Shown here piece by piece: positions 2,541-49,239 of a stretch of DNA of 64,000 bases. Source of the DNA: Escherichia phage CJ20; the sequence record MT533174.1. One strand, written 5' to 3'. The notes beneath the pieces are model-generated. The model was not told the DNA's origin. It did not search any database and saw only the letters and a program-made list of their open reading frames with translations. The position numbers and the translations under genes are program-made. Position 1 is the first letter of the stretch. The number at the start of each line of letters is the position of its first letter.

Positions 2541-3205
2541 TAGTAGACTCGCTTATAGTGATAAAGAGATGTTGGACCATTAACCGAACCACCTTGCAAT
2601 ACTACATCTTGTGCGCCAAGATATTCCCATTGGCCATAACCAGAGCGGGGTTGCTGAACAATAGTCTGTTCCATAACACATCCATATTGGGTCGTAGGAG
2701 CAAAGATGTGATTCTGATAGTCGTTATATGTAATATTTAATATAGACTGGTCCAGTGCATCGATAGCAGTCGCAGAAATAATCATTCCCTGGGAAATTGC
2801 AGTCAAAAGAACGTCATTGACTTTCGATGCAACCAGCACGCTCGAGTCGCCGACAATAACTTCTACCGGGAAACCGAATACTTTAATAAGAACCGTTTCG
2901 CCAAGGTTTTCGCCAGAAATAGACCCAGTGAACTTAATTTTATCAGACTGACTAATAAATCCAGGGGCGGTATTCTCATGACGAGTAATTATCGAACCAA
3001 CAGGAAGTTCTGCACGAAATGCAATATCATCAATTGCACTTTGGACTGTTGGATAGAATACACCATCATTTGTCTGGTTAGCAGACGGGCCACCGATATA
3101 GCGGTTACCCGCTACAGCAGTGGAATCAGTAGTTGTATAATCAAACTGGAGGTAACCAGCATGGCGGGATATTACACCCGCCTTTTTATTTGTCAACGTA
3201 GTCAT
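2540..3205 (-). CDS. 11: baseplate wedge protein gp11 (short tail fibre attachment)
   Basis: About 221 aa from the ATG at 3205 (1-nt TAATG overlap with gp10 stop); NKKAGVISR N-terminal motif resembles T4 gp11; synteny 10-11-12. Confidence 0.8.
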   Translation of the reverse strand: MTTLTNKKAGVISRHAGYLQFDYTTTDSTAVAGNRYIGGPSANQTNDGVFYPTVQSAIDDIAFRAELPVGSIITRHENTAPGFISQSDKIKFTGSISGENLGETVLIKVFGFPVEVIVGDSSVLVASKVNDVLLTAISQGMIISATAIDALDQSILNITYNDYQNHIFAPTTQYGCVMEQTIVQQPRSGYGQWEYLGAQDVVLQGGSVNGPTSLYHYKRVY

Positions 3206-5016
3206 TATGCAATCCTTACCCAACGGTAAACAATCAAATATGGAGGAAGCGTATCTATTGGCTGTGCCAGCGGGTCAAGAGCTTCGTTAATAGTCGCATA
3301 ATCTTCACGATAGTTTGTATAAGCAGGACCTTGCGCATCTGGGTCAACCTGGCAACCACCAACAATAATTGGACCAGTTGCATCAGCTACCAATACTTTT
3401 TCATCGGTCTGAATTTTAGGAATATTGTTTGATTTAATATGAATCTGTACATTACCACCAGTTCCGCCCGCAGTTGCCTGAGGAGCACCAGAAGAATCAA
3501 GGTCGTTATTGTTCGTATGGAAGTTCGAGGCTGGGTCAGCAGACCAACCAATCAAAACACGTTCTTCAAGGCGCTTCCATGTTCCCATACCCATATATGT
3601 TGCAGGGTTATTCGGGTTAGTCGTGTTCTCGTAAATTGTGCCAATTGGATGGAACATATTAAAGAGAATCGAAACAGCAGATGGTTTAATTTCGCTTGGG
3701 TCAACCGGTTCCAGGTTAGGAGCAAACGGATTATCGTAATCCGTAATTCTTATATCGCCGGTGATTGAAACTTCTGGACCCTGGGAAACATAGATGTTAT
3801 TTGTTTCATCTGTAATTTCATCAAGAGTCATTGTGGTGCCGATATCGTTATTATACCAAACGATAGACAGAATATCGCCATCTTCAAATGTGCGAGCAAA
3901 CTCAAAAGATTCAATACGGTTGTCTTCATCAAAGGTTGTTATATAGTCTTCTTTTGATTTAGCCCATTGACCACCATTATCTGTACACTCTTCTGCAGTG
4001 TCACCATCAGCACCTTCGCATGTATAAGCTGGATAGTTTGCAGTTCCTGCTTCGTGTTGTAATATGCTGTTGATATAAACTTCACATGCGTTCGGGTTAA
4101 TTGGACTGCTAGGAGATACCGCTAGTTCAGTAACCATAAATGTGTGTTTAGTAGATAAATCAGCTACAACCAAAGAGCCTTCGACAGGGGTTTCAAGAGT
4201 AAATTTCGAATCACGGATTTGAACATCTCGACGGTTATAAGAACTACGATACTGAGCAATACCATCGTTGAATGTTCTGACAATAACTGTGTCACCAGCT
4301 GCACAAGGCATACGTAAACGAATATTGCGACCGTCAAGGGTTACAATTTCACCAGGCGCAGCACCAGGCGAACCGAATTCAGCATTAACCGGGTCGAAAA
4401 TATCATCTTTGCCATAAAACAGGTCGTTACCACGATGTTTAACTTCGAGGCTTGCAATGTTATAAGGACGACCATTAAACACATCCAGGAAGTCCGTTTG
4501 ACCTTCTGTTGCGATGAATTGCTGGGTCTCAACAGTTGCCACGTCGTTATTTGAAATCTTGTCAATCTGTTTGTTGTCAATGTATTCCCAACGACCTGGA
4601 GAGCAATAAACCAGTTCGATATCTGCCAGGTTACGACGGATAACAACAGGGTCAGGAGAGCCTTTCATTGTGTCACCGACAGCCGGAACAATCGTCACCG
4701 GGGAGACTTGCCATGTTGCAAACACATCACGCAAACGAATAACGTAATTATATTCGGCTGGTGTCCCTTTAGGTAGTTTAACAGTAATCATACCATTTGA
4801 AGTATTCACTGCATAGCTACGACCCATAACGGCTTCCAGAGTTGTACCGTCGGCTACTGACCATGTTTTCCATGCACCAGCAGCATGAGGATTTTCTCCA
4901 TCGCCGAGCTGGTAGTAAAGGTCATCAAAGTTATTATTAATTTTTTGGCCGCCGAGACGAAGATAATCGCCGGTACCATCATCGACCATCACGCCTATTT
5001 TTAAATTTTGTTTCAT
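3205..5016 (-). CDS. 10: baseplate wedge protein gp10
   Basis: 603 aa (T4 gp10 is about 602 aa); N-terminus MKQNLKIGVMVDDGTGDYLR matches the T4 gp10 N-terminus. Confidence 0.9.
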   Translation of the reverse strand: MKQNLKIGVMVDDGTGDYLRLGGQKINNNFDDLYYQLGDGENPHAAGAWKTWSVADGTTLEAVMGRSYAVNTSNGMITVKLPKGTPAEYNYVIRLRDVFATWQVSPVTIVPAVGDTMKGSPDPVVIRRNLADIELVYCSPGRWEYIDNKQIDKISNNDVATVETQQFIATEGQTDFLDVFNGRPYNIASLEVKHRGNDLFYGKDDIFDPVNAEFGSPGAAPGEIVTLDGRNIRLRMPCAAGDTVIVRTFNDGIAQYRSSYNRRDVQIRDSKFTLETPVEGSLVVADLSTKHTFMVTELAVSPSSPINPNACEVYINSILQHEAGTANYPAYTCEGADGDTAEECTDNGGQWAKSKEDYITTFDEDNRIESFEFARTFEDGDILSIVWYNNDIGTTMTLDEITDETNNIYVSQGPEVSITGDIRITDYDNPFAPNLEPVDPSEIKPSAVSILFNMFHPIGTIYENTTNPNNPATYMGMGTWKRLEERVLIGWSADPASNFHTNNNDLDSSGAPQATAGGTGGNVQIHIKSNNIPKIQTDEKVLVADATGPIIVGGCQVDPDAQGPAYTNYREDYATINEALDPLAQPIDTLPPYLIVYRWVRIA

Positions 5017-10072: not shown

Positions 10073-12029
10073 ATAATGTAATTGGTTCTAAATTAATAGT
10101 CGTATAATGTGGACGAAGGTCATTTTCGAATACGATAAGCGAACCGTCTTTTGTGTAGATGTTGTCCTGGTCTGGACCCGCATACAGTTCGATTGATTGC
10201 ACTTCAAAACGGTCCGAAGTCAAACCAATCGCGGCAATGTCCCAGAAGATATAATCAGACCAATAATCGATTTCACCGATTACAAAGTATTGAGTCTGGT
10301 CAGCTGGTGCAACCATCTTATTAAAGTCATTACCTGTATAAGGTTGAATATTCGCATTAAGCTGAACATCACCTGGACGGAACGGACCAATGACCATTTT
10401 ACCATCGCCAGAAGAGTTGCGGTCAGTCGCTACAATACGGACGTTATATGAGGTAATGGTATCGCTTTGGTTTGTTGGAACGAATTCGAATTCGCTTGAT
10501 TCCACCGACCTATTAGTATATTGATTATAATATTTAATGCCGGATTCTGGAGTCTTAAAGAAGTTCAAGACCTCGCGAACCATTGTCACCGTTGCAGACG
10601 AACCCAAAATACTATGGTCAGTATTATCCACATAAGTGAGCATTTTCGATTTAGCAAAACTGTGGTTAAACAATTCAACTTCATCAATATAATAGCGGTC
10701 AATCTGGTTAATGATTTGTGCTTGCAACCACTGTTCAGATTCCTGTAATTTATTCAGCGCATAAGACACTTTGATATTGTGTTTAAGGAACAAATAATCA
10801 GGAGAAATAACTGATGGTGTAATTGTCGATACGTTGAACTCACTAAGGTAGTTTTTGATGTCCTCACGCTGCACTGCGGTGAGATACAAGCCCGATTTAG
10901 GTTTAACTGATATAAACGCATACCCAGGTTTATTTGCGTCCGTAAACGTCTGTACGGCTTGTACGATTGAGCCGAATCTTTCTGATACGAAGGTATCATA
11001 ATCGGTCCCGGTGACAGCACGCATCTGCGCTTCACGTTTAACTACAGCCAGTTCACGGATTCGTTCAATATCTTCCGGGTCACCGCCACCATCAGCTCCA
11101 ACGTAATCTTTATCGTTATTGTAGTTTTCGGTAATCTTGTCAACAGTGATATAAGTCAAGGAGTCTGCATAGCTGAAATCAACTGCACCATTTGCATCAG
11201 CCCCTGATGTGCGAAGATATTCGATAACAATTGTCGAATCCTGCACAGGTTTCAATCCACCAATATAGTTGGCTTCCAATACGCCACCGGCAACCGATTT
11301 GGTCGATTCCCCTTCACCAAAGAAGAATTCAGTATTACCATCAACAGTTTCACGCATATAGAAAATGGTGGATGTTGAGCCAGCATGAACCATTGATTTG
11401 TTTGTCCAGTCAGTCCACTCGATACCGTTCACAAAAAGCTTAACTTCTTTTCGGTCAATATCCGGGTCACGAATAAGAATAGGTTGTTTCGGGTCATACA
11501 AAAGTTCGGTACGAATAATGCGGCCTTGTGCAAGGGATACAATCGGCAGATATTGGTTGTTAATGTCTTTTACCGCGATTACATTATCCGTTGTGACAAA
11601 CATATAAGGGTCAGCTGATGTATCACGAGCATAAGCCAGGAACTTAGTCCCGCGCGGGATTTCAATATTCGATGGTTGGAGAGCGTGAGAACATGTCAGC
11701 ATAACCGAAGTCTTTGCGGCTGAACGTGAAGATGGAAGATAACCATTATCCTGTGCAGCTTGAACAACCGAAGACCTTAGGTTTGCAGTTCCGATAAATG
11801 ATTCATAAACTGCCGTATTAGCAAACTGCTGCATATACAATGTATTATATGCAAGCATATCAATCAGGATATTCATTCGCGAACCTACGAAATCATAATC
11901 CTTAAATTCATCCTGGCTTGATAACCAGTCAATGATGTTCTTTTTAATTTCTTCAAACGTAGCTCCCACAAATACTTTTGGGATAGCGTTAACGGTTCTT
12001 GTTAATTGGTAATTCGTAGGAGTAGCCAT
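10071..12029 (-). CDS. 6: baseplate wedge protein gp6
   Basis: 652 aa; high identity over the whole length to the T4 gp6 sequence as I recall it (for example YQLTRT-NAIP, VYESF, ANLRSSVVQ, GADGGGDPEDIERIREL, C-terminal SLIVFENDLRP). Confidence 0.92.
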   Translation of the reverse strand: MATPTNYQLTRTVNAIPKVFVGATFEEIKKNIIDWLSSQDEFKDYDFVGSRMNILIDMLAYNTLYMQQFANTAVYESFIGTANLRSSVVQAAQDNGYLPSSRSAAKTSVMLTCSHALQPSNIEIPRGTKFLAYARDTSADPYMFVTTDNVIAVKDINNQYLPIVSLAQGRIIRTELLYDPKQPILIRDPDIDRKEVKLFVNGIEWTDWTNKSMVHAGSTSTIFYMRETVDGNTEFFFGEGESTKSVAGGVLEANYIGGLKPVQDSTIVIEYLRTSGADANGAVDFSYADSLTYITVDKITENYNNDKDYVGADGGGDPEDIERIRELAVVKREAQMRAVTGTDYDTFVSERFGSIVQAVQTFTDANKPGYAFISVKPKSGLYLTAVQREDIKNYLSEFNVSTITPSVISPDYLFLKHNIKVSYALNKLQESEQWLQAQIINQIDRYYIDEVELFNHSFAKSKMLTYVDNTDHSILGSSATVTMVREVLNFFKTPESGIKYYNQYTNRSVESSEFEFVPTNQSDTITSYNVRIVATDRNSSGDGKMVIGPFRPGDVQLNANIQPYTGNDFNKMVAPADQTQYFVIGEIDYWSDYIFWDIAAIGLTSDRFEVQSIELYAGPDQDNIYTKDGSLIVFENDLRPHYTTINLEPITL

Positions 12030-12030
12030 T

Positions 12031-14094
12031 TTATTTCCTAGTAGGAGATTCTAAACAAGGTATGCAAATGGAAAGGGATGGAAATGCAATCGTTAAACCG
12101 AATATTCCCAGCATCTTATTAATCCATTGTACCACCTTACTTAATGATAATGTTGATATTTGGTTATACATTGATTTGCACAAGTCTTTCATTGACCTGG
12201 AACCATCAGTAAATTCGTGATATAAAGATTTTGCTTTAGTTACTGAGTTCTCGTATATAACCATGATATCATCTACAGTAGCTCCGAGCATACCGAGAAG
12301 TTCTTCCATTTGAGTCACAATAGGAAGCTTTTTGAATTCTTCTAAAGCCATATCTAATACATCAGAAACGGAGGTTTGACTTTCGGTAATAGAGTTCTTA
12401 ATCTGATTATATTTATTCTTTAAAAGTTCAAGTGCAGCTTCAGCTTGTGCTAATGCGGCTTCCTTCTGAGCAGTTAGCTCGTCTGTAACTTTTTCGTACA
12501 TTCCTGAAAGATATTGTTTAAATTCAATAGCTTGTTTTTGTACTTCTTGCTTTTTGAGCTTAATCTCATTCCACAGATTGAGTGCCTGGGTTTTAAGAGC
12601 CTCAATCATTGCATAAGCTTCGTCTATTTTCTGGTCTACCTTTTCCATAACCATTTGATAAACATCTGATGCTGTGAATCCTGGAAAGTTACCGCTCATT
12701 ATCATGTCCAGTGGTTTAACTTGCTTCATCATTTCCTTGACCGCAGTAATAACGCTCCAAACTGGGTTCGGAACTATAGGAGGCATACTCCATATTTGAG
12801 CGAGGTCTACACACAGTTTTGATAATGCAACACCAGCCATAAGCAATTGAGACCAGGCCCAGTCATACAAGTCTGTAATTGCATCAATAAGGTCACGCGA
12901 ATACATCTTGACGCGTTCAACCGAATAATCGTATGCCGACCCAATGGCAGAATAAATCGATTGGATGGTTTCTTCTAAATTAAAGTTTTTCCATGCTTCT
13001 TTTAATTTCTGTACACCATCACCTGAAGTGCAGAGGTCTTCCAGGTCAATAGTCATGCCCATAATAGTAATCGAGGGTAAAAAGCTTTTAAGTAAGTCCC
13101 ACCCACCGCCAACAATATTCAAGACCTGTGATATGGCATCTTTAAATGCAAGAAAAGCCATTTGCTGAACATATTGACACATAGCAACAGCTGAGTTGCC
13201 TAGCTCTTCCATTGCGACCGATAGCTTACTATAACCAGAATCGAAGAATTTTTCCCAATCGGTTCCACCAGATGATGGCCATCCAGGGAGCATATCCCAA
13301 TATAATTTGAATGAATTCCTAGATGTATTCCATGAAGCCATAATCGCATTGGTCAATCCGTTGTAAGGGAATTCCGCTGTAAAAGGAACACAGCTTATTG
13401 CCCTGGCTCGCCCGGTTATTTCTGGCGGTAAAGACCCGATGGATACCGGTCCCGGAATCGGAGTTCCTGGGATACTCATATCAACATCTAGATTTAATAT
13501 CAGTCCAACATAAGTACAAGGTTTTGTCTCATAGTACTTCAAATAAGCCCTGCGGGAGTCACCAAGGCCGTTAAAGTTGACATACATATGATAATCAGCC
13601 GTAACTGCAATCATCGTCCTGGGGTCCATTCTGGGGCCTTGTGACGTCCATACACCGCCACAGTTTTCGATGCGATACATATCATATTCAATAGATGTTT
13701 TATACAATACAGATTTTGATAAATCGGCGCCGTACCAATCATTACCGGACAAAAGAGTTGCACCAATCGATTCTACATAATTTTCTAAATCCAATTGCGT
13801 AATAAAGAATATTCCGAGTTTAGCACACCAGATACCTTGACTTGTTCCATCTTCCGGCGGGGGAGGTGCAGGAAAAGTTTCGGACTTATTACCAAATGGA
13901 TTTTGTGTGTATAAATGTGTAGCTAGTGGAATAATCTCGGTATCCCATTCAACGCCATTCCCAGGTTGAATAAAAGCACCTGTTGGGTTATATAATTCCC
14001 ATTTAACCCGGCGATATTCACCGGGTCCTACTGCGTCATCACAGGGACTTGTTACAGTCCCTACCACTTCATCAACTTTATTGTAGTAATTCAT
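12031..14094 (-). CDS. hypothetical 687-aa protein embedded in the baseplate operon (central coiled coil, hydrophobic Cys-containing C-terminus)
   Basis: Long uninterrupted ORF; ATG at 14094 lies 1 nt after the gp5 stop and its own stop lies 1 nt before the gp6 ATG; I recognise no homolog; occupies the slot where T4 has genes 5.1 to 5.4. Confidence 0.7.
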   Translation of the reverse strand: MNYYNKVDEVVGTVTSPCDDAVGPGEYRRVKWELYNPTGAFIQPGNGVEWDTEIIPLATHLYTQNPFGNKSETFPAPPPPEDGTSQGIWCAKLGIFFITQLDLENYVESIGATLLSGNDWYGADLSKSVLYKTSIEYDMYRIENCGGVWTSQGPRMDPRTMIAVTADYHMYVNFNGLGDSRRAYLKYYETKPCTYVGLILNLDVDMSIPGTPIPGPVSIGSLPPEITGRARAISCVPFTAEFPYNGLTNAIMASWNTSRNSFKLYWDMLPGWPSSGGTDWEKFFDSGYSKLSVAMEELGNSAVAMCQYVQQMAFLAFKDAISQVLNIVGGGWDLLKSFLPSITIMGMTIDLEDLCTSGDGVQKLKEAWKNFNLEETIQSIYSAIGSAYDYSVERVKMYSRDLIDAITDLYDWAWSQLLMAGVALSKLCVDLAQIWSMPPIVPNPVWSVITAVKEMMKQVKPLDMIMSGNFPGFTASDVYQMVMEKVDQKIDEAYAMIEALKTQALNLWNEIKLKKQEVQKQAIEFKQYLSGMYEKVTDELTAQKEAALAQAEAALELLKNKYNQIKNSITESQTSVSDVLDMALEEFKKLPIVTQMEELLGMLGATVDDIMVIYENSVTKAKSLYHEFTDGSRSMKDLCKSMYNQISTLSLSKVVQWINKMLGIFGLTIAFPSLSICIPCLESPTRK

Positions 14095-42953: not shown

Positions 42954-43406
42954 ATGATTATCAATTCAAACTCTTGGCACGTTAAATTACATGACCGTTT
43001 TTATGACCGTCATTCTCGACCACACTCTCTGTGCGCTTATTTCTGGAAAATGGTTTGGGCTTGTTTCGTTTGTGCTATTGTTGCAGGTGGTACGCTTTTT
43101 GGATTAACTGTTGCAGGAGCTAGTGTATTAGAGCATTTCTTTGTATTAAGTACTCCTGTTCTGTTGAGTCTCGGGTTTGTTTTAGGGTTGGTTGCAATAG
43201 CTCTTATTATTGCGATATCCATTGGTTTGGCCTTCGGTGCGATGAATTTACACGCGTGGTATGATTTACATAAAGAAGAAAAGGAATGGCAACGTATTAA
43301 AGCCAAACGTGAAGGAAAGGAAATTAAAGAAAACATCGTTATCCAATACATTAAAGCTCGTAAATCTAAGATGTGTCCGGTAATCCATTTTGAGGCGAAG
43401 AAATGA
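42954..43406 (+). CDS. integral membrane protein
   Basis: 150 aa; three or four hydrophobic helices; 4-nt overlap with the downstream ORF. Confidence 0.55.
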   Translation: MIINSNSWHVKLHDRFYDRHSRPHSLCAYFWKMVWACFVCAIVAGGTLFGLTVAGASVLEHFFVLSTPVLLSLGFVLGLVAIALIIAISIGLAFGAMNLHAWYDLHKEEKEWQRIKAKREGKEIKENIVIQYIKARKSKMCPVIHFEAKK

Positions 43407-44413
43407 GAACAGTTATGAAAGGCTACTTCGGTAGCCATCTTTATGGAACAAGTACTCCGGAATCTGATGTCGATTTTAAAGAAATCTTTGTTCCTCATCC
43501 GCGAGATATCCTGCTCGGGACCGCGATGAACCATACCAACCTGAACACGAATAACACGGCTACCAAAAATACAAAAGATGATGTTGACCATGAACTTTAT
43601 AGTCTGAAATATTTCTTTAAACTGGCAGCCGAAGGCGAAACCGTTGCTCTGGACATGATTCACACACCGGCTGACCTGGTTGTCAAATCCGATTTACCAG
43701 ATGTATGGAAGTTTATCCAGGATAACCGTTCACGGTTCTATACAACTAACATGAAAGCCTATTTGGGGTATGTCCGTAAGCAAGCTTCTAAGTATGGTGT
43801 TAAAGGTTCTCGATTGGCTGCACTGCGTGGTGTACTGGCAATTGTTAACCAGATTCCTGAACAGTGGGTCGATTATCAAGAAGATGGTTCTACTAAGCAA
43901 CGACGTACTAAGGTAGAAGATATCAAACACCGGCTCCCTGAAAACGAGTTCTGTGAATGGGTATTTCATAACCATGAGAAAACAGGTCCTCAAACATTCT
44001 ATACTGTTCTCGGTCGTAAATACCAAACTACCCTGTCTTTAATCGAGCTCAAGCAGTCTCTGAATAAACTTGATGCCGAATATGGTGAACGTGCTCGTAA
44101 GGCTGAAGCCAATGAAGGTATTGACTGGAAAGCTCTGAGTCATGCTTATCGTGCCGGATACCAGTTGAAGGAAATCTATCAAACTGGTGACCTCCAATAT
44201 CCTTTACGTACAGCACCGTTTATCCTTGAAATCAAACAAGGGCTTCATGCTTTTAAAGATGTACAGGCCGAACTTGAAGCTATCGTTGATGAAGTCGAAA
44301 CTAATGCCATCTGGGCCGCTAAGAATGGTATGCCTGAGAAGGTAGACATGAAGTTCTGGGACAAGTTCGTTGAAGAGGTATACCTTGACAACCACAATTC
44401 CTATTATCGTTAA
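43403..44413 (+). CDS. putative nucleotidyltransferase-fold protein
   Basis: 336 aa; N-terminal GSHLYGTSTPESDVDF matches the Pol-beta-superfamily G[GS]...D-x-D motif. Confidence 0.55.
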   Translation: MRTVMKGYFGSHLYGTSTPESDVDFKEIFVPHPRDILLGTAMNHTNLNTNNTATKNTKDDVDHELYSLKYFFKLAAEGETVALDMIHTPADLVVKSDLPDVWKFIQDNRSRFYTTNMKAYLGYVRKQASKYGVKGSRLAALRGVLAIVNQIPEQWVDYQEDGSTKQRRTKVEDIKHRLPENEFCEWVFHNHEKTGPQTFYTVLGRKYQTTLSLIELKQSLNKLDAEYGERARKAEANEGIDWKALSHAYRAGYQLKEIYQTGDLQYPLRTAPFILEIKQGLHAFKDVQAELEAIVDEVETNAIWAAKNGMPEKVDMKFWDKFVEEVYLDNHNSYYR

Positions 44414-44418
44414 ATTCT

Positions 44419-44445
44419 AAGGACCCTTCGGGGTCCTTTTTTATT
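44419..44445 (+). terminator. rho-independent terminator with UUCG loop
   Basis: GGACCC-TTCG-GGGTCC followed by TTTTTT. Confidence 0.7.
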
Positions 44446-45111: not shown

Positions 45112-45636
45112 ATGGACGCAAAATCAATCTTTAATCTGATTAATTACAATAATGGTAATTTTAAATCAGAAGCACAAAGTAAGTTCTTTAATGATGTTGC
45201 TTGTGCGGGTGAGATTACAGTATCAGGTGGTCAAACTTATAAAAACGCCTGGAACTGGATTGTGACTGTTGATTCAGTTGGTATTGTTGATGTGTATAAA
45301 AACACCAACAAAAACCGCTCTTTGTTCTGGTCAAGAGAGACTAATGCAGAATATCAAGCGGCAAGAGCGAAGAAAAATATGCCTACTGAATCTGATGTAC
45401 AAAACATCAAATCAGATATCCAATATTATGATGGTCTGATTGCTGAACAACAAGCGGTGCTTGATAAGTTCAATGAAATCAAGGCGTGTAAAGAGATTCC
45501 TGAATTCATGAGGGAATCAGTTAATGAACAATACAATCTCACTTCAGAGCGTATTGAAACCTATACCAAACAAAGAGCAGAGCGCCAGGTACTCCTTCAG
45601 AAGTTTGAAGAGCGTTTAAAGACGGTTCTCGCATAA
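45112..45636 (+). CDS. hypothetical protein
   Basis: 174-aa ORF. Confidence 0.55.
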   Translation: MDAKSIFNLINYNNGNFKSEAQSKFFNDVACAGEITVSGGQTYKNAWNWIVTVDSVGIVDVYKNTNKNRSLFWSRETNAEYQAARAKKNMPTESDVQNIKSDIQYYDGLIAEQQAVLDKFNEIKACKEIPEFMRESVNEQYNLTSERIETYTKQRAERQVLLQKFEERLKTVLA

Positions 45637-45637
45637 A

Positions 45638-45662
45638 CGCTTTATACCAAGGATGGTATAAT
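45638..45662 (+). promoter_or_regulatory. middle-promoter-like element (MotA-box variant CGCTTTA, 12 bp, TATAAT)
   Basis: Spacing fits T4 MotA-dependent middle promoters. Confidence 0.4.
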
Positions 45663-45699: not shown

Positions 45700-46545
45700 A
45701 TGTCGCAAGCAATTAATGAAATTCGTTCTGAAGTTAAAAAAGTTGTTAAATTTAACAGCATTCCAAGCACTAAAGATGTGGTTTTAAAGGTTCTATATAT
45801 GATGTGGGATAAGTTCAATGTTTGTACTAATTCTGCTGAATTCACTAAAATCTTTGAAAAGACCAAAGGCCTTCTTACATTAGAAGACCGAGTCATGAAA
45901 TCTCTTCATCGTTCAGGTATGTTGTCTCGTGCTAATGCTAAAATTCTACTTAAAAATTATAACAAAGGCTATGACCTTTATGGTCGTGCGATTAGCACCA
46001 TGACGTTTGATGAAGTGGTTAAAGACCTTTGGAAGAACCAACGACGTTTACTGGCTCTTGGTGCTCGTTTGGCAAGCGGTCAAGATAAACAAATGACCTT
46101 TAAAACCAATAATTCTTTAGATTATAAACTATTTAATGTTATTAAAGGTCAAAATGAAGGCGAATACAGTATTTCTTCTTTTAGTGGATGTCAATACGAA
46201 AACTGGAAATTCCACCTCCGTTTGGCTTTGTCTGAACTCGAACATCATGGGGTTCTTACCTTTTATGATGTTAAAACTGGAGGCGTCCAGCGTATTAAAC
46301 TATGTCAAATTAAAGACCGAGTTGAAGTCAGTCCTTCAGAACAAGCTCCTAAAATGGAACAGGTTCCAGTGCGAAGCAATGAAAAATATTCAGAGCAAAT
46401 TGAGCTTTTCACTAAACAGATTGAAGAACTTAACATCACCATCCAGCAGCAAGATGATGAAATTTTCCGCCTGACAGGATTGAACAGTGCAGCGAAAGCT
46501 GAACGTCAGAAACTGATGAACGTTATTGAATTGCTTAAGGATTAA
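45700..46545 (+). CDS. hypothetical 281-aa protein with C-terminal coiled coil
   Basis: Long ORF; no recognised domain. Confidence 0.6.
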   Translation: MSQAINEIRSEVKKVVKFNSIPSTKDVVLKVLYMMWDKFNVCTNSAEFTKIFEKTKGLLTLEDRVMKSLHRSGMLSRANAKILLKNYNKGYDLYGRAISTMTFDEVVKDLWKNQRRLLALGARLASGQDKQMTFKTNNSLDYKLFNVIKGQNEGEYSISSFSGCQYENWKFHLRLALSELEHHGVLTFYDVKTGGVQRIKLCQIKDRVEVSPSEQAPKMEQVPVRSNEKYSEQIELFTKQIEELNITIQQQDDEIFRLTGLNSAAKAERQKLMNVIELLKD

Positions 46546-46546
46546 T

Positions 46547-46762
46547 ATGACCATTTTTATTATCAGTATTATTTTTGGTTATCTTTTGACGGGATTTATT
46601 ACTACCCTATTGCTCCACAAGTTTGATAGTCCCTACGAAAGTGGGGACGAGTATGATGCAGTGTTCACTACATTTGCATGGCCTTTGTTTTGGATAATCG
46701 CTGTTATAATGTTTGTGACCTGGCCTTTTGCTAAACTCTATGAAAAATTATTTGGATTATGA
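46547..46762 (+). CDS. small membrane protein
   Basis: 71 aa; two hydrophobic helices; start overlaps the upstream stop. Confidence 0.5.
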   Translation: MTIFIISIIFGYLLTGFITTLLLHKFDSPYESGDEYDAVFTTFAWPLFWIIAVIMFVTWPFAKLYEKLFGL

Positions 46763-46763
46763 T

Positions 46764-47663
46764 ATGAAAATTAAAACTCGTGCTGAATATGCTAGTAGTT
46801 ATGAACCACATGACGGTCGTGTGACTCGTCTTATCGCAATGAATTCTTTGGTTAACTTTGGCAAAATTAAATCAGGTTCTGCCACCCAGGGGTATGGACA
46901 ACGTATTGTAAAGATTGATTCTTTGAATGATTACTGCCGCCGCCCGGCGTTTTTGTTTGGTGCCACGGTTCGTAAGAGTATCAAGGAAATTCTGGCCGGT
47001 GGATTTCGTATTCGCAAAGCTCCGGTTAACATCAAGAACTATAATTTTAACTCTGACAACTTGATTATCAATATCAAGAATGATGGTATACAGATTAAGT
47101 TCAAACCAACCACCAAGGGCGATGTTGCTCTTTGCCATAACTTTAAAGAGGTTATGGGTATTGCACTGTTTTATATGCGTCATGCTGTTGAATCTTACAC
47201 GTTTGATGAAGATACAAATTATATCCACCAAACGGAAAAATTCCTCAAAACTATAGTCATTGATATTAAATTAACTAAAGAATATCTTTTGTCTTATGCT
47301 CCTTATCAAGAGAAAAATGAACCAGAAGAGGAAAAGGAACCAGAAATGGAACGTATCCCTACCGCATCATATGGCCCAGCATTTGCAGGTCAATTTAAAT
47401 CTTATGACCAGACTAAAATTTCACCACATGACGTTAAAAATATGTACAAATGGAACGTCCAGCCAAACAGCTCTCTTGAAATCTTTAACCCACCAATGAA
47501 GCCTATTGAGAGCTATCATGCTGATGCTATCCGGGAATCAGTTAACCGCTTAAATGGTCTGATTGAAGATGAGAAAAAGGGTATCCAGGATGTTCTGAAT
47601 CGCATCAAGAATATGGAAAAACAACGCAATAAATTGCAAGCTGCAATCAAAGCATTAAAATAA
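46764..47663 (+). CDS. hypothetical 299-aa protein with C-terminal coiled coil
   Basis: Long ORF from the ATG at 46764. Confidence 0.6.
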   Translation: MKIKTRAEYASSYEPHDGRVTRLIAMNSLVNFGKIKSGSATQGYGQRIVKIDSLNDYCRRPAFLFGATVRKSIKEILAGGFRIRKAPVNIKNYNFNSDNLIINIKNDGIQIKFKPTTKGDVALCHNFKEVMGIALFYMRHAVESYTFDEDTNYIHQTEKFLKTIVIDIKLTKEYLLSYAPYQEKNEPEEEKEPEMERIPTASYGPAFAGQFKSYDQTKISPHDVKNMYKWNVQPNSSLEIFNPPMKPIESYHADAIRESVNRLNGLIEDEKKGIQDVLNRIKNMEKQRNKLQAAIKALK

Positions 47664-47664
47664 T

Positions 47665-47694
47665 GTTTACTTCCAAGGATGGAGGGAGTATAAT
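47665..47694 (+). promoter_or_regulatory. early promoter (GTTTAC, 18 bp, TATAAT)
   Basis: Followed by the leader ...TTTATGAGGAGAACACTATG. Confidence 0.5.
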
Positions 47695-47721
47695 GAATTC
47701 CTACTTTATGAGGAGAACACT

Positions 47722-48711
47722 ATGACACGTAATGAATATATCCAGGCCTTTAACACCACTATCGATGCAAAAGTAAAACCATTAACAGGTGAATCGGCTA
47801 TCCTTTCAATTATCAATTCCTGGTTAAATCAGATTGATTCGACTATTGTTGCATCTTGTCGCTTTGAAAAAGACATCGCAACTATTGCGAGTCGCGCCGG
47901 TAATGATGATATCAAGAAAACTTTTAAAGGTTCCCGAGTCCTGGCATACCTGGTTAATAAAGACCTTCTTAACAAGTTTGGTGTTGAATCCAGACGCGGT
48001 AAAGGTACAATTGGCTATCATTGGTTTGGTGATGTTGAAAAATACTATCTTGATAAACAAGGCTATACTGTTTCTGAATTCGCAAATTGCTGGGCGCGTG
48101 AATTCAGAGATAACAAAATGTCTATCATCAAATCAGCGACAAAATTGATGGATGGTGATTATCGCACTATCTCCCATTTGGCTGAGCACATGGTCAAGGT
48201 TAAAGAGTCTGGGGAAAACCAGGTAATTATTACAGTTAAGCATGAGTTCTTTACTCCAGTAGCTACCCCAGAAAATGTCAAAAAGTATTTGGATGCTGCG
48301 AGCATGCTTACTTCACAACTGCAGTGTGCCCTTAACTATATGCGTACTGTTGAAAAAATTAAAGTAGACCCTATTACCAGTACTCATGGTTGGAAAGGTT
48401 GGAAATTTGTGGTGACATTACGCGAAGTTAAATGTGCAAAGCAACCAACTGTTGCAGAAATCCATAAAAAGAAAAGTGAGGAAATTATGAATGCACCACA
48501 AGAAACCACCCTTGAAGACCTGATTGATAATCTGAATAATGAGCCAGTGGAACAAAAAGCGCCTGAAATTGTTGCTCTGGAAATGGCGTATAATAAAGCT
48601 CTTGCTGTTAATAAAAAGGCAACTGAAGACTATACCAAAGCCAAGCGACTTTGGGAAGAATCAACTAATCGTCTGGATAAACTGGAACAGGCTCTGGAGC
48701 TGCTGAAATGA
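47722..48711 (+). CDS. hypothetical 329-aa protein with C-terminal coiled coil
   Basis: Long ORF. Confidence 0.6.
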   Translation: MTRNEYIQAFNTTIDAKVKPLTGESAILSIINSWLNQIDSTIVASCRFEKDIATIASRAGNDDIKKTFKGSRVLAYLVNKDLLNKFGVESRRGKGTIGYHWFGDVEKYYLDKQGYTVSEFANCWAREFRDNKMSIIKSATKLMDGDYRTISHLAEHMVKVKESGENQVIITVKHEFFTPVATPENVKKYLDAASMLTSQLQCALNYMRTVEKIKVDPITSTHGWKGWKFVVTLREVKCAKQPTVAEIHKKKSEEIMNAPQETTLEDLIDNLNNEPVEQKAPEIVALEMAYNKALAVNKKATEDYTKAKRLWEESTNRLDKLEQALELLK

Positions 48712-49010
48712 AACAACGTTTAAGAGAAGACATTGCTTCAGCATCTAATACAGGTTTATTGAACTTTATTAAAGGAGCCGAATTGATTGGTAAGATTCAC
48801 GGTTGTGATGATTATAGCCAAGATATTCCTGATTGGAATGCGATTATTAAAATTGTCGAACGTCGTGAAAAAGCTTCTAAGAACGTTCCGAACTGTCCTG
48901 AATGCGGAACTGAACAGGTCCAATTGACTTATTGGCGTAGCTCTCCGCTTCAATATAAATGCAGACATTGTAAACACAAATTTGAGCGAGATGAAAATGG
49001 CAAAGCGTAA
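48708..49010 (+). CDS. zinc-ribbon protein
   Basis: 100 aa; C-terminal CPECG...CRHCKHKF. Confidence 0.55.
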
Positions 49011-49239
49011 AGAATATGTTGAGACCGCCGAAAGGGTGGTCCGTGAATTAACTCTGGCTTATTATAAAGAACACGGTAAACTTCCGGATAGTTATTCAGT
49101 ATTGAAATCTGCTTTAACTCGTTCATATAATAATATGCGTTCAGAAGTTTATGGTATTATGGTCAAACATAAAGAACAAACCGGTCAATACTCCGATTAT
49201 ACTGAGACCTTCAAACAAGTATTAGGAATTAAGGAATAA
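48991..49239 (+). CDS. hypothetical protein
   Basis: About 82 aa; start uncertain (TTG at 48982, ATG at 48991 or 48997). Confidence 0.45.

Follow-up and report, generated by a model that had tools for sequence, protein, structure and literature searches.

The best described relative of the genes considered here is nrdC.5 of phage T4, which alone, on a plasmid, lets a deletion mutant plate again on cells that carry the ECOR17 Dsr1 system (PMC9391042, Srikant et al., 2022). Dsr1 shares its sensor with Avs7, and the trigger is the phage major capsid protein (bioRxiv 10.64898/2026.01.04.697583). Septu is inhibited by T4 nrdC.1 (bioRxiv 10.1101/2025.11.20.689424), OLD is inhibited by T6 gp49.2 (PMC13096335), and none of the T4 genes nrdC.3 to nrdC.6 is essential, their loss bringing no fitness cost in the laboratory host (HIDEN-SEQ preprint, supplement). 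This study deals with three consecutive plus-strand genes in a stretch of 64,000 nucleotides (nt) from Escherichia phage CJ20 (MT533174.1; hereafter the window), which encode proteins A (45700-46545; 281 amino acids, aa), B (46764-47663; 299 aa) and C (47722-48711; 329 aa). Based on PHROG and Pfam matches and on synteny with Escherichia phage vB_EcoM_VR7, these are identified as orthologues of T4 NrdC.6, NrdC.5 and NrdC.4, C being also a paralogue of T4 NrdC.3. The evidence leaves about an even chance that the whole of the following reading holds: the three proteins are orthologues of those T4 proteins, they belong to a tandem paralogue family, and they act as oligomeric counter-defence inhibitors of immune sensors.

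Protein A matched phrog_2257 (E 2.4e-120; residues 1-281 against model positions 1-303). The NrdC.6 homologues (n=104) all came from T-even-type phages and all carried PF26899, and the central motif NYNKGYDLYGR...NQRRLLALGARLAxGxDKQMxFKTN was invariant in the family alignment that includes A. Protein B matched phrog_2351 and the Pfam family DUF7235/PF23882, the latter at 422.8 bits (E 1.1e-126; model positions 10-307 of 307) against a gathering score of 30 bits; T4 NrdC.5 scored 420.6 bits (E 5e-126) with the same model. B shares only about 25% identity with T4 NrdC.5 and is 41 aa shorter. Most homologues of B use the ATG at 46764 as the start, a TTG at 46728 being the alternative. Protein C matched phrog_1435 (E 1.3e-138), which also contains both T4 NrdC.4 and NrdC.3; its homologues carry PF26897, and it is 100% identical to a phage CJ20 protein. 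A and C are full-length orthologues of their T4 counterparts, with heads 45-50% and tails 62-77% identical to those of T4.

The locus itself points the same way. The 6.2 kilobases (kb) spanning it share 93% nt identity with VR7 (Gaprivervirus) and its relatives, and by its sequence the window belongs to a T4-like, Gaprivervirus-like phage. The annotated order in VR7, nrdC.6 / ORF094c / nrdC.5 / nrdC.4 / nrdC.2, matches that in the window, and T4 has identical families in identical order, plus nrdC.3 (also phrog_1435). As at the T4 nrdC locus, the genes are flanked by nrdC.8 and nrdC.2, with nrdC, gene 49 and nrdD further downstream. Searches with tblastn retrieved 741 phage records for NrdC.6, 529 for NrdC.5 and 553 for NrdC.4, and the three families were confined to T-even-type phages. 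A HMMER search with the NrdC.4 profile against 1.84 billion representative proteins gave only 8 matches, and no cellular homologue emerged. PADLOC and NCBIfam gave no matches for A, B or C, no enzyme family was matched in Pfam, NCBIfam, PADLOC or PDB sequences, and profile searches of PDB sequences brought up nothing but designed repeat proteins and a structural maintenance of chromosomes (SMC) coiled coil, with E >0.01. The NrdC.4-profile search also yielded a 664-aa protein (P0218) with repeats of ~60-75 residues (...FVQIDTKEFEDAVTWLNEERGIPMDTIKEIFKG...), which matches the helical N-terminal part of the profile weakly (E 5e-5, five stretches).

The original prediction, made from the letters alone, had proposed open reading frames (ORFs) at 45700, 46764 and 47722, which are indeed real plus-strand genes, and had described their products as uncharacterised and unrecognisable. 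The latter was mistaken, since the proteins are recognisable as T4 NrdC.6, NrdC.5 and NrdC.4 orthologues and T4 NrdC.5 counters Dsr1. No match to a T4 core protein of known function was found, the T4 orthologues being non-essential accessory genes. The ORFs had also been called much larger than their neighbours; this holds for most neighbours (40-174 aa) but not for the upstream nrdC.11, which at 336 aa is equally large. The small membrane protein noted between the first two ORFs was recovered (71 aa, two hydrophobic segments, phrog_7899).

The proposal that a repeated architecture marks a family was borne out at profile and structure level only; pairwise BLASTP among A, B and C gave nothing significant. 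Comparison of full-length family alignments by hhalign returned probabilities <5%, because the alignments were too shallow and broader tail-less ones were needed. When the families were broadened with T4 and Mosigvirus sequences and the last 60 residues were cut, NrdC.4 matched NrdC.3 (probability 98%, E 1.6e-13), and NrdC.5 matched both NrdC.4 (80%, E 1e-5, 164 columns) and NrdC.4 combined with NrdC.3 (94%, E 1.2e-7). NrdC.6 matched PM2_092 of Pectobacterium phage PM2 (80%, E 1.4e-5), which in turn matches phrog_26858, the NrdC.6 PHROG and the NrdC.5 PHROG; proteins B and C of the window also match phrog_26858. The direct tail-less comparison of NrdC.6 reached E 0.023 with NrdC.4 and was not significant with NrdC.5.

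Predicted structures extended these matches. In Foldseek searches of BFVD, the model of B matched the NrdC.6 homologue of phage Sf25 (E 1e-3, probability 1.0), and the model of C matched the NrdC.6 of JS10 (E 1e-5; template modelling scores 0.40/0.45) and an NrdC.3-like protein (E 4e-9). A single Erwinia phage Cronus protein was common to the matches of the two models, and reciprocal matches were confined to same-locus T4-like phage proteins. An alignment of 13 sequences was collinear, with M(K)TRxEY at the N-terminus, (R/K)LxxGxD, LxxALxxMxxV and the tail as common motifs. Tail-only hhalign alignments ran end to end, though without significance (E 0.015-0.06), and homology of the tails is thus not demonstrable by sequence statistics alone. 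As judged from profiles and predicted folds, NrdC.3 to NrdC.6 are diverged tandem paralogues that form one family across Straboviridae.

The members have a common build, consisting of a helical plus alpha/beta head, a disordered linker of ~25-70 residues and a C-terminal heptad helix of ~50 residues. AlphaFold2 models, which cover B and C, place a globular region at residues 18-176, a disordered region at 179-246 and a single helix at 248-298 of B (mean predicted local distance difference test score, pLDDT, 63), and a globular region at 1-235 and a single helix at 281-328 of C (mean pLDDT 79). In the heads of both models a helix is followed by a beta-hairpin, and this unit is present twice.

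The C-terminal amphipathic helices claimed in the original prediction were confirmed by comparing the hydrophobic contrast at heptad positions a and d with 20,000 shuffles per tail. The observed contrast was reached in 18 shuffles for the tail of A (46375-46542, plus strand; residues 226-281), in 17 for that of B (47502-47660, plus strand; residues 247-299) and in 58 for that of C (48562-48708, plus strand; residues 281-329). Heptad periodicity and a continuous helix, the latter predicted by AlphaFold2 for B and C, mark the tails as coiled coils, each of ~7 heptads and running to the very C-terminus. The core of A has N,I,I,I,I,N,R,I at 'a' and Y,F,L,Q,L,A,L,L at 'd', that of B has A,V,I,I,I,R,I and E,I,L,E,V,M,L,L, and that of C has I,Y,N,Y,W,L,L and L,A,A,A,S,L,L. 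A parallel dimer of the GCN4 type is specified by beta-branched 'a' residues, Leu in the 'd' positions and a single polar 'a' layer. The cores of A and B follow this classical pattern, having Ile/Val at 'a', Leu at 'd' and a layer of Asn or Arg in one 'a' position.

All three tails finish in one register, KLxxx(I/L)x(L/A)LK, with A ending in KLMNVIELLKD and B in KLQAAIKALK. The expression [KR]L...[ILVM].[LAIV]L[KR].{0,2}$ matched 3 of the 477 six-frame ORFs of at least 50 aa, namely A, B and C only, with the caveat that the motif was set after the sequences had been seen; a looser expression, widened to fit the four T4 proteins, gave the identical result (3/477). The chance of such an ending is ~3e-5 per protein, or ~1e-4 with tail-like composition. 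The ending and its register are common to all families, including the four T4 proteins (T4 NrdC.5 ends in KLNNALNALN), and the superfamily ending L-x3-(I/L)-x2-L-(K), with the helix continuing to the end of the protein, was found. The identity of the last residue varies among K, N, L, S, D and E, and a residue-specific C-terminal signal such as a degron was rejected on this ground.

In each family the tail comes first or near the top in conservation, and in NrdC.5 the tail seen in B ranks first. Column conservation in the tail of A was 0.76-0.84, compared with 0.47-0.85 elsewhere in the protein. Between NrdC.4 and its divergent homologue P0108 the heads are 27% and the tails 82% identical; the corresponding values are 45% and 69% for NrdC.6 against the T4 type, and ~50% and 62-87% for NrdC.5 against divergent homologues. 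In the comparison of the window with T4, 45-80% of the identical-residue codons in the tails carry synonymous changes, as frequently as in the rest of the genes, which indicates constraint on the protein and not on the DNA. These changes led to rejection of the idea that the conserved 3' ends represent a DNA element (promoter or recombination linker) or recent gene conversion; mosaic tail exchange does occur between closer phages. The exposed b/c/f positions are conserved at 0.74-0.81, compared with 0.66-0.73 in the heads, and each family has its own conserved exposed surface, DDEIFR in NrdC.6, IQDVLNRIKNME in NrdC.5 and WEESTNRLD in NrdC.4.

In the mechanism proposed here, A, B and C would be early or middle, dispensable counter-defence proteins whose fast-diverging heads may each bind an immune sensor of the host. 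In the NrdC.5 lineage the sensor in question would be Dsr1, which is a SIR2 NADase and senses the major capsid protein. Through its conserved tail the protein would become an oligomer, in the simplest case a parallel homodimer, and at least two heads on flexible tethers could then bind an oligomerising sensor with avidity before the late structural proteins appear. Tandem duplication followed by divergence of the heads would have produced paralogues aimed at different sensors. The analysis establishes the identity, architecture, paralogy, tail conservation and genomic context of the three proteins; that they bind sensors, how they oligomerise and what A and C do are inferred. The nrdC.1 orthologue (48982-49239) is adjacent, which places the three genes directly beside a proven type of counter-defence gene.

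Several points weigh against this proposal. The anti-Dsr1 effect belongs to T4 nrdC.5, and B may share it by analogy; since B is only ~25% identical to the T4 protein, the activity may not transfer. For NrdC.3, NrdC.4 and NrdC.6 no experimental phenotype was found in the literature searched. NrdC.6 is linked weakly to the other families, through the bridge protein and predicted fold matches and without a direct profile match. The core of C, with Tyr/Asn/Tyr/Trp at 'a' and Ala/Ala/Ala/Ser at 'd', departs from the classical dimer type, and conservation at b/c/f exceeds the need of a plain homodimer, which hints at an extra partner. In addition, the presence of one conserved copy at the nrdC locus in distant genera could reflect a housekeeping accessory role rather than one in an arms race.

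The content of the locus varies among phages. T4 carries NrdC.6/5/4/3 and the window NrdC.6/5/4, whereas Mosigvirus PHB12 has NrdC.6-like, NrdC.5-like and NrdC.3-like genes and phage Pinarejo has NrdC.5/4/3 plus an unannotated remnant of the NrdC.6 tail (3998-4135 of its extracted locus, L004). Truncated copies were found in the SP18 and G8 phages and a short NrdC.4-like protein in T2. In Salmonella phage Manna, gene 094 (3131-4168 of locus L003) joins an NrdC.6 head in frame to an NrdC.4 linker and tail, the junction lying at a microhomology (QQYDDEI / QQKCDEI) with nrdC.5 and most of nrdC.4 deleted; NrdC.3 is also present. This chimera was considered as evidence that tails are interchangeable and was given little weight, the junction being unique to one isolate. 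The 378-aa NrdC.6 homologue of Shigella phage Sf25 (P0197) contains an internal duplication of ~80 residues, in which the stretch between the second beta-hairpin and the beginning of the tail, both included, is repeated (IRAHSTDYVNMGHHLCLAFEV...NKQIEEL); this is further evidence for ready recombination at the locus. Presence/absence variation, truncations and mosaicism of this kind are typical of arms-race genes.

More distant phages carry a single copy at the nrdC locus. The protein of Pectobacterium phage PM2 ends in KLFAALSALK, that of Erwinia phage Cronus in ...RKFKQILEAL and that of Acinetobacter phage fHyAci03 (Twarogvirinae) in ...TIKILSK. As these single-copy relatives possess such a tail, the ancestral state was probably a single tailed gene that T-even phages expanded by tandem duplication, and a self-sufficient tail is favoured. 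This bears on the alternative that survives best, though it is unlikely, in which complementary tails join NrdC.6, NrdC.5 and NrdC.4 (and NrdC.3 in T4) into a multi-headed hetero-oligomer. Equal tail length (~7 heptads), register relative to the C-terminus and ending would fit such a complex, as would the different exposed surface that each family conserves, the adjacency of the genes with A, the membrane ORF and B translationally coupled, and the large/small alternation in the core of C, which suits heterotypic packing. A fixed partnership is difficult to reconcile with gene content that changes freely (6/5/4/3 in T4, 6/5/4 in the window, 6/5/3 in PHB12, 5/4/3 in Pinarejo and 6::4 with 3 in Manna), with the single copies of PM2, Cronus and fHyAci03, or with the rescue of infection by T4 nrdC.5 alone on a plasmid. 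Tails also assort independently: those of PSD2001 are 64% identical to the window in NrdC.6 and 93% in NrdC.5, and NC-G is likewise mosaic.

Rather unlikely, too, is a role outside counter-defence, in which these proteins would be accessory factors for host takeover or metabolic scaffolding (transcription, nucleotide-synthesis machinery) and the effect of NrdC.5 on Dsr1 would be indirect. A single conserved copy in the nrd region across distant Straboviridae would be expected of such factors, and the strictly invariant internal motif of NrdC.6 resembles an enzymatic or binding site, although no enzyme family was matched in the searches of Pfam, NCBIfam, PADLOC and PDB sequences mentioned above. 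That the genes can be lost in the laboratory host without a fitness cost, and are frequently deleted or truncated in natural isolates, speaks for the proposed inhibitors of immune sensors instead, as do the documented defence-specific rescue by T4 nrdC.5 and the proven anti-defence genes in the neighbourhood.

It is doubtful that the tail is a docking helix, that is, a common handle which binds a host factor or a phage protein (e.g., the NrdC.2 Zn-ribbon) and recruits the heads to one place. Conservation at the exposed b/c/f positions matches that of the heads, the helix always reaches the free C-terminus, and in four genera the last family member overlaps the start codon of nrdC.2. Families differ in the exposed residues that they conserve, and this speaks against a single common surface; the terminal residue is not invariant (K, N, L, S, D, E). 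Cronus, moreover, lacks a downstream nrdC.2-like gene, and no partner was identified.

An improbable elaboration of the inhibitor proposal would make NrdC.3 to NrdC.6 a Straboviridae-wide tandem family of early coiled-coil decoys. The heads would imitate a structural fold of the tail-terminator or tail-completion type, each occupying the sensor of a different shape-recognising receptor without triggering it (Dsr1, Avs7-type sensor proteins, other Avs), and the tails might unite the paralogues of T-even phages in a multi-specific anti-immune complex. The named folds of this type are lambda gpU, DUF3168 and SPP1 gp17-like; the family showed neither membership of a tail-terminator or tail-completion sequence family nor a virion role. 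Coincidence, in which three unrelated proteins each happen to end in an amphipathic helix, would agree with the non-significant pairwise BLASTP, full-length hhalign and tail-only hhalign results, but it is already disfavoured and highly improbable in view of the tail-less profile matches, the bridging PHROGs, the reciprocal Foldseek matches limited to same-locus T4-like phage proteins, the tail motif exclusive to the three ORFs and the collinear common motifs.

Other features of the locus were also surveyed. The small membrane ORF (46547-46762, plus strand; 71 aa, ATG start, phrog_7899 at E 3e-27) corresponds to ORF094c of VR7. Gaps of only 1 nt separate it from the A stop codon on one side and the B start codon on the other, and from these gaps it is predicted to be translationally coupled to both. 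Downstream, the nrdC.2 Zn-ribbon gene (48708-49010, plus strand) has an ATG that overlaps the stop of C (ATGA), and the start of nrdC.2 lies inside the stop of the last NrdC.3-6 member in the window, T4, PHB12 and PM2, representing four genera; this conserved coupling hints at a functional link. In the compared loci, nrdC.2-type genes were located at 6383-6697 in L002 (T4), 7383-7688 in L005 and 11862-12074 (minus strand) in L006. A nrdC.2-like gene downstream of the family member was absent in Erwinia phage Cronus.

Directly upstream of A lies the nrdC.8 orthologue (45112-45636; phrog_2274). Its C-terminal region is helical too (...YTKQRAERQVLLQKFEERLKTVLA) and its RAERQ recalls the KAERQ of the NrdC.6 tail; the heptad periodicity is marginal (1273/20,000 shuffles) and there is a weak Pfam match to UvsY (E 0.095). 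The nrdC.11 orthologue (43403-44413; 336 aa) belongs to the RlaP family (PF10127) of Pol-beta-type nucleotidyltransferases, with E 4.9e-11, and a strong terminator-like hairpin with a T-run follows it at 44419-44438. Compared with T4, the window is without nrdC.3, nrdC.7 and nrdC.10, and the small ORFs between nrdC.11 and nrdC.9 differ. Upstream of A, at 45638-45662 (plus strand), CGCTTTA is followed after 12 nt by TATAAT, a promoter-like site that, with one mismatch to the consensus, resembles a T4 MotA-dependent middle promoter. Upstream of C, at 47665-47694 (plus strand), GTTTACT and TATAAT are separated by 17 nt (10/12 matches in the scan), a promoter-like site that resembles a T4 early promoter; as the number of promoter-like sites in the region does not exceed the shuffle expectation, the evidence for this site is weak. 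A recent preprint reports a potential role of the RlaP family in RNA repair (bioRxiv 10.64898/2025.12.29.696909).

The genes were already catalogued as conserved hypothetical T4-type genes, and the anti-Dsr1 phenotype of T4 nrdC.5 was published without a mechanism. What this study adds is a link among four families, NrdC.3, NrdC.4, NrdC.5 and NrdC.6, which are filed separately in Pfam and PHROG and appear to be one modular paralogous family whose tail is more conserved than its target-facing head. The literature searched held no paper linking the four or describing a shared tail, and searches by Pfam and PHROG identifiers returned nothing. If the proposal is true, NrdC.3, NrdC.4 and NrdC.6 would be candidate inhibitors of other immune sensors, and the family would illustrate how counter-defence genes can diversify when tandem duplication leaves one oligomerisation module fixed. 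Such a modular build would also lend itself to mechanism studies by exchange of tails and heads.

Among known systems, the T4 locus differs from the window in having nrdC.3, nrdC.7 and nrdC.10, while the small membrane ORF between nrdC.6 and nrdC.5 is the window's; its NrdC.6, NrdC.4 and NrdC.3 are conserved hypothetical proteins for which no published function was found in the literature searched. The tails of A and B may be likened to GCN4-type parallel dimeric zippers in their beta-branched 'a', Leu-rich 'd' and polar Asn/Arg 'a' layer, from which the aromatic/Ala core of C departs; unlike these zippers, the CJ20 proteins carry no basic DNA-binding region. DSAD1 of phage SPbeta is reported to neutralise the defence-associated sirtuin DSR2 by binding to it in competition with the structural protein that triggers it. 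DSR2 senses the tail tube whereas Dsr1 senses the capsid protein, and the likeness of DSAD1 to the model for NrdC.5 would be one of mechanism only. T4 NrdC.5, from whose allele the anti-Dsr1 effect is known, is 41 aa longer than B and ~25% identical to it; the two share a full-length match to DUF7235, a place between nrdC.6 and nrdC.4, the head-linker-tail architecture and the kind of ending.

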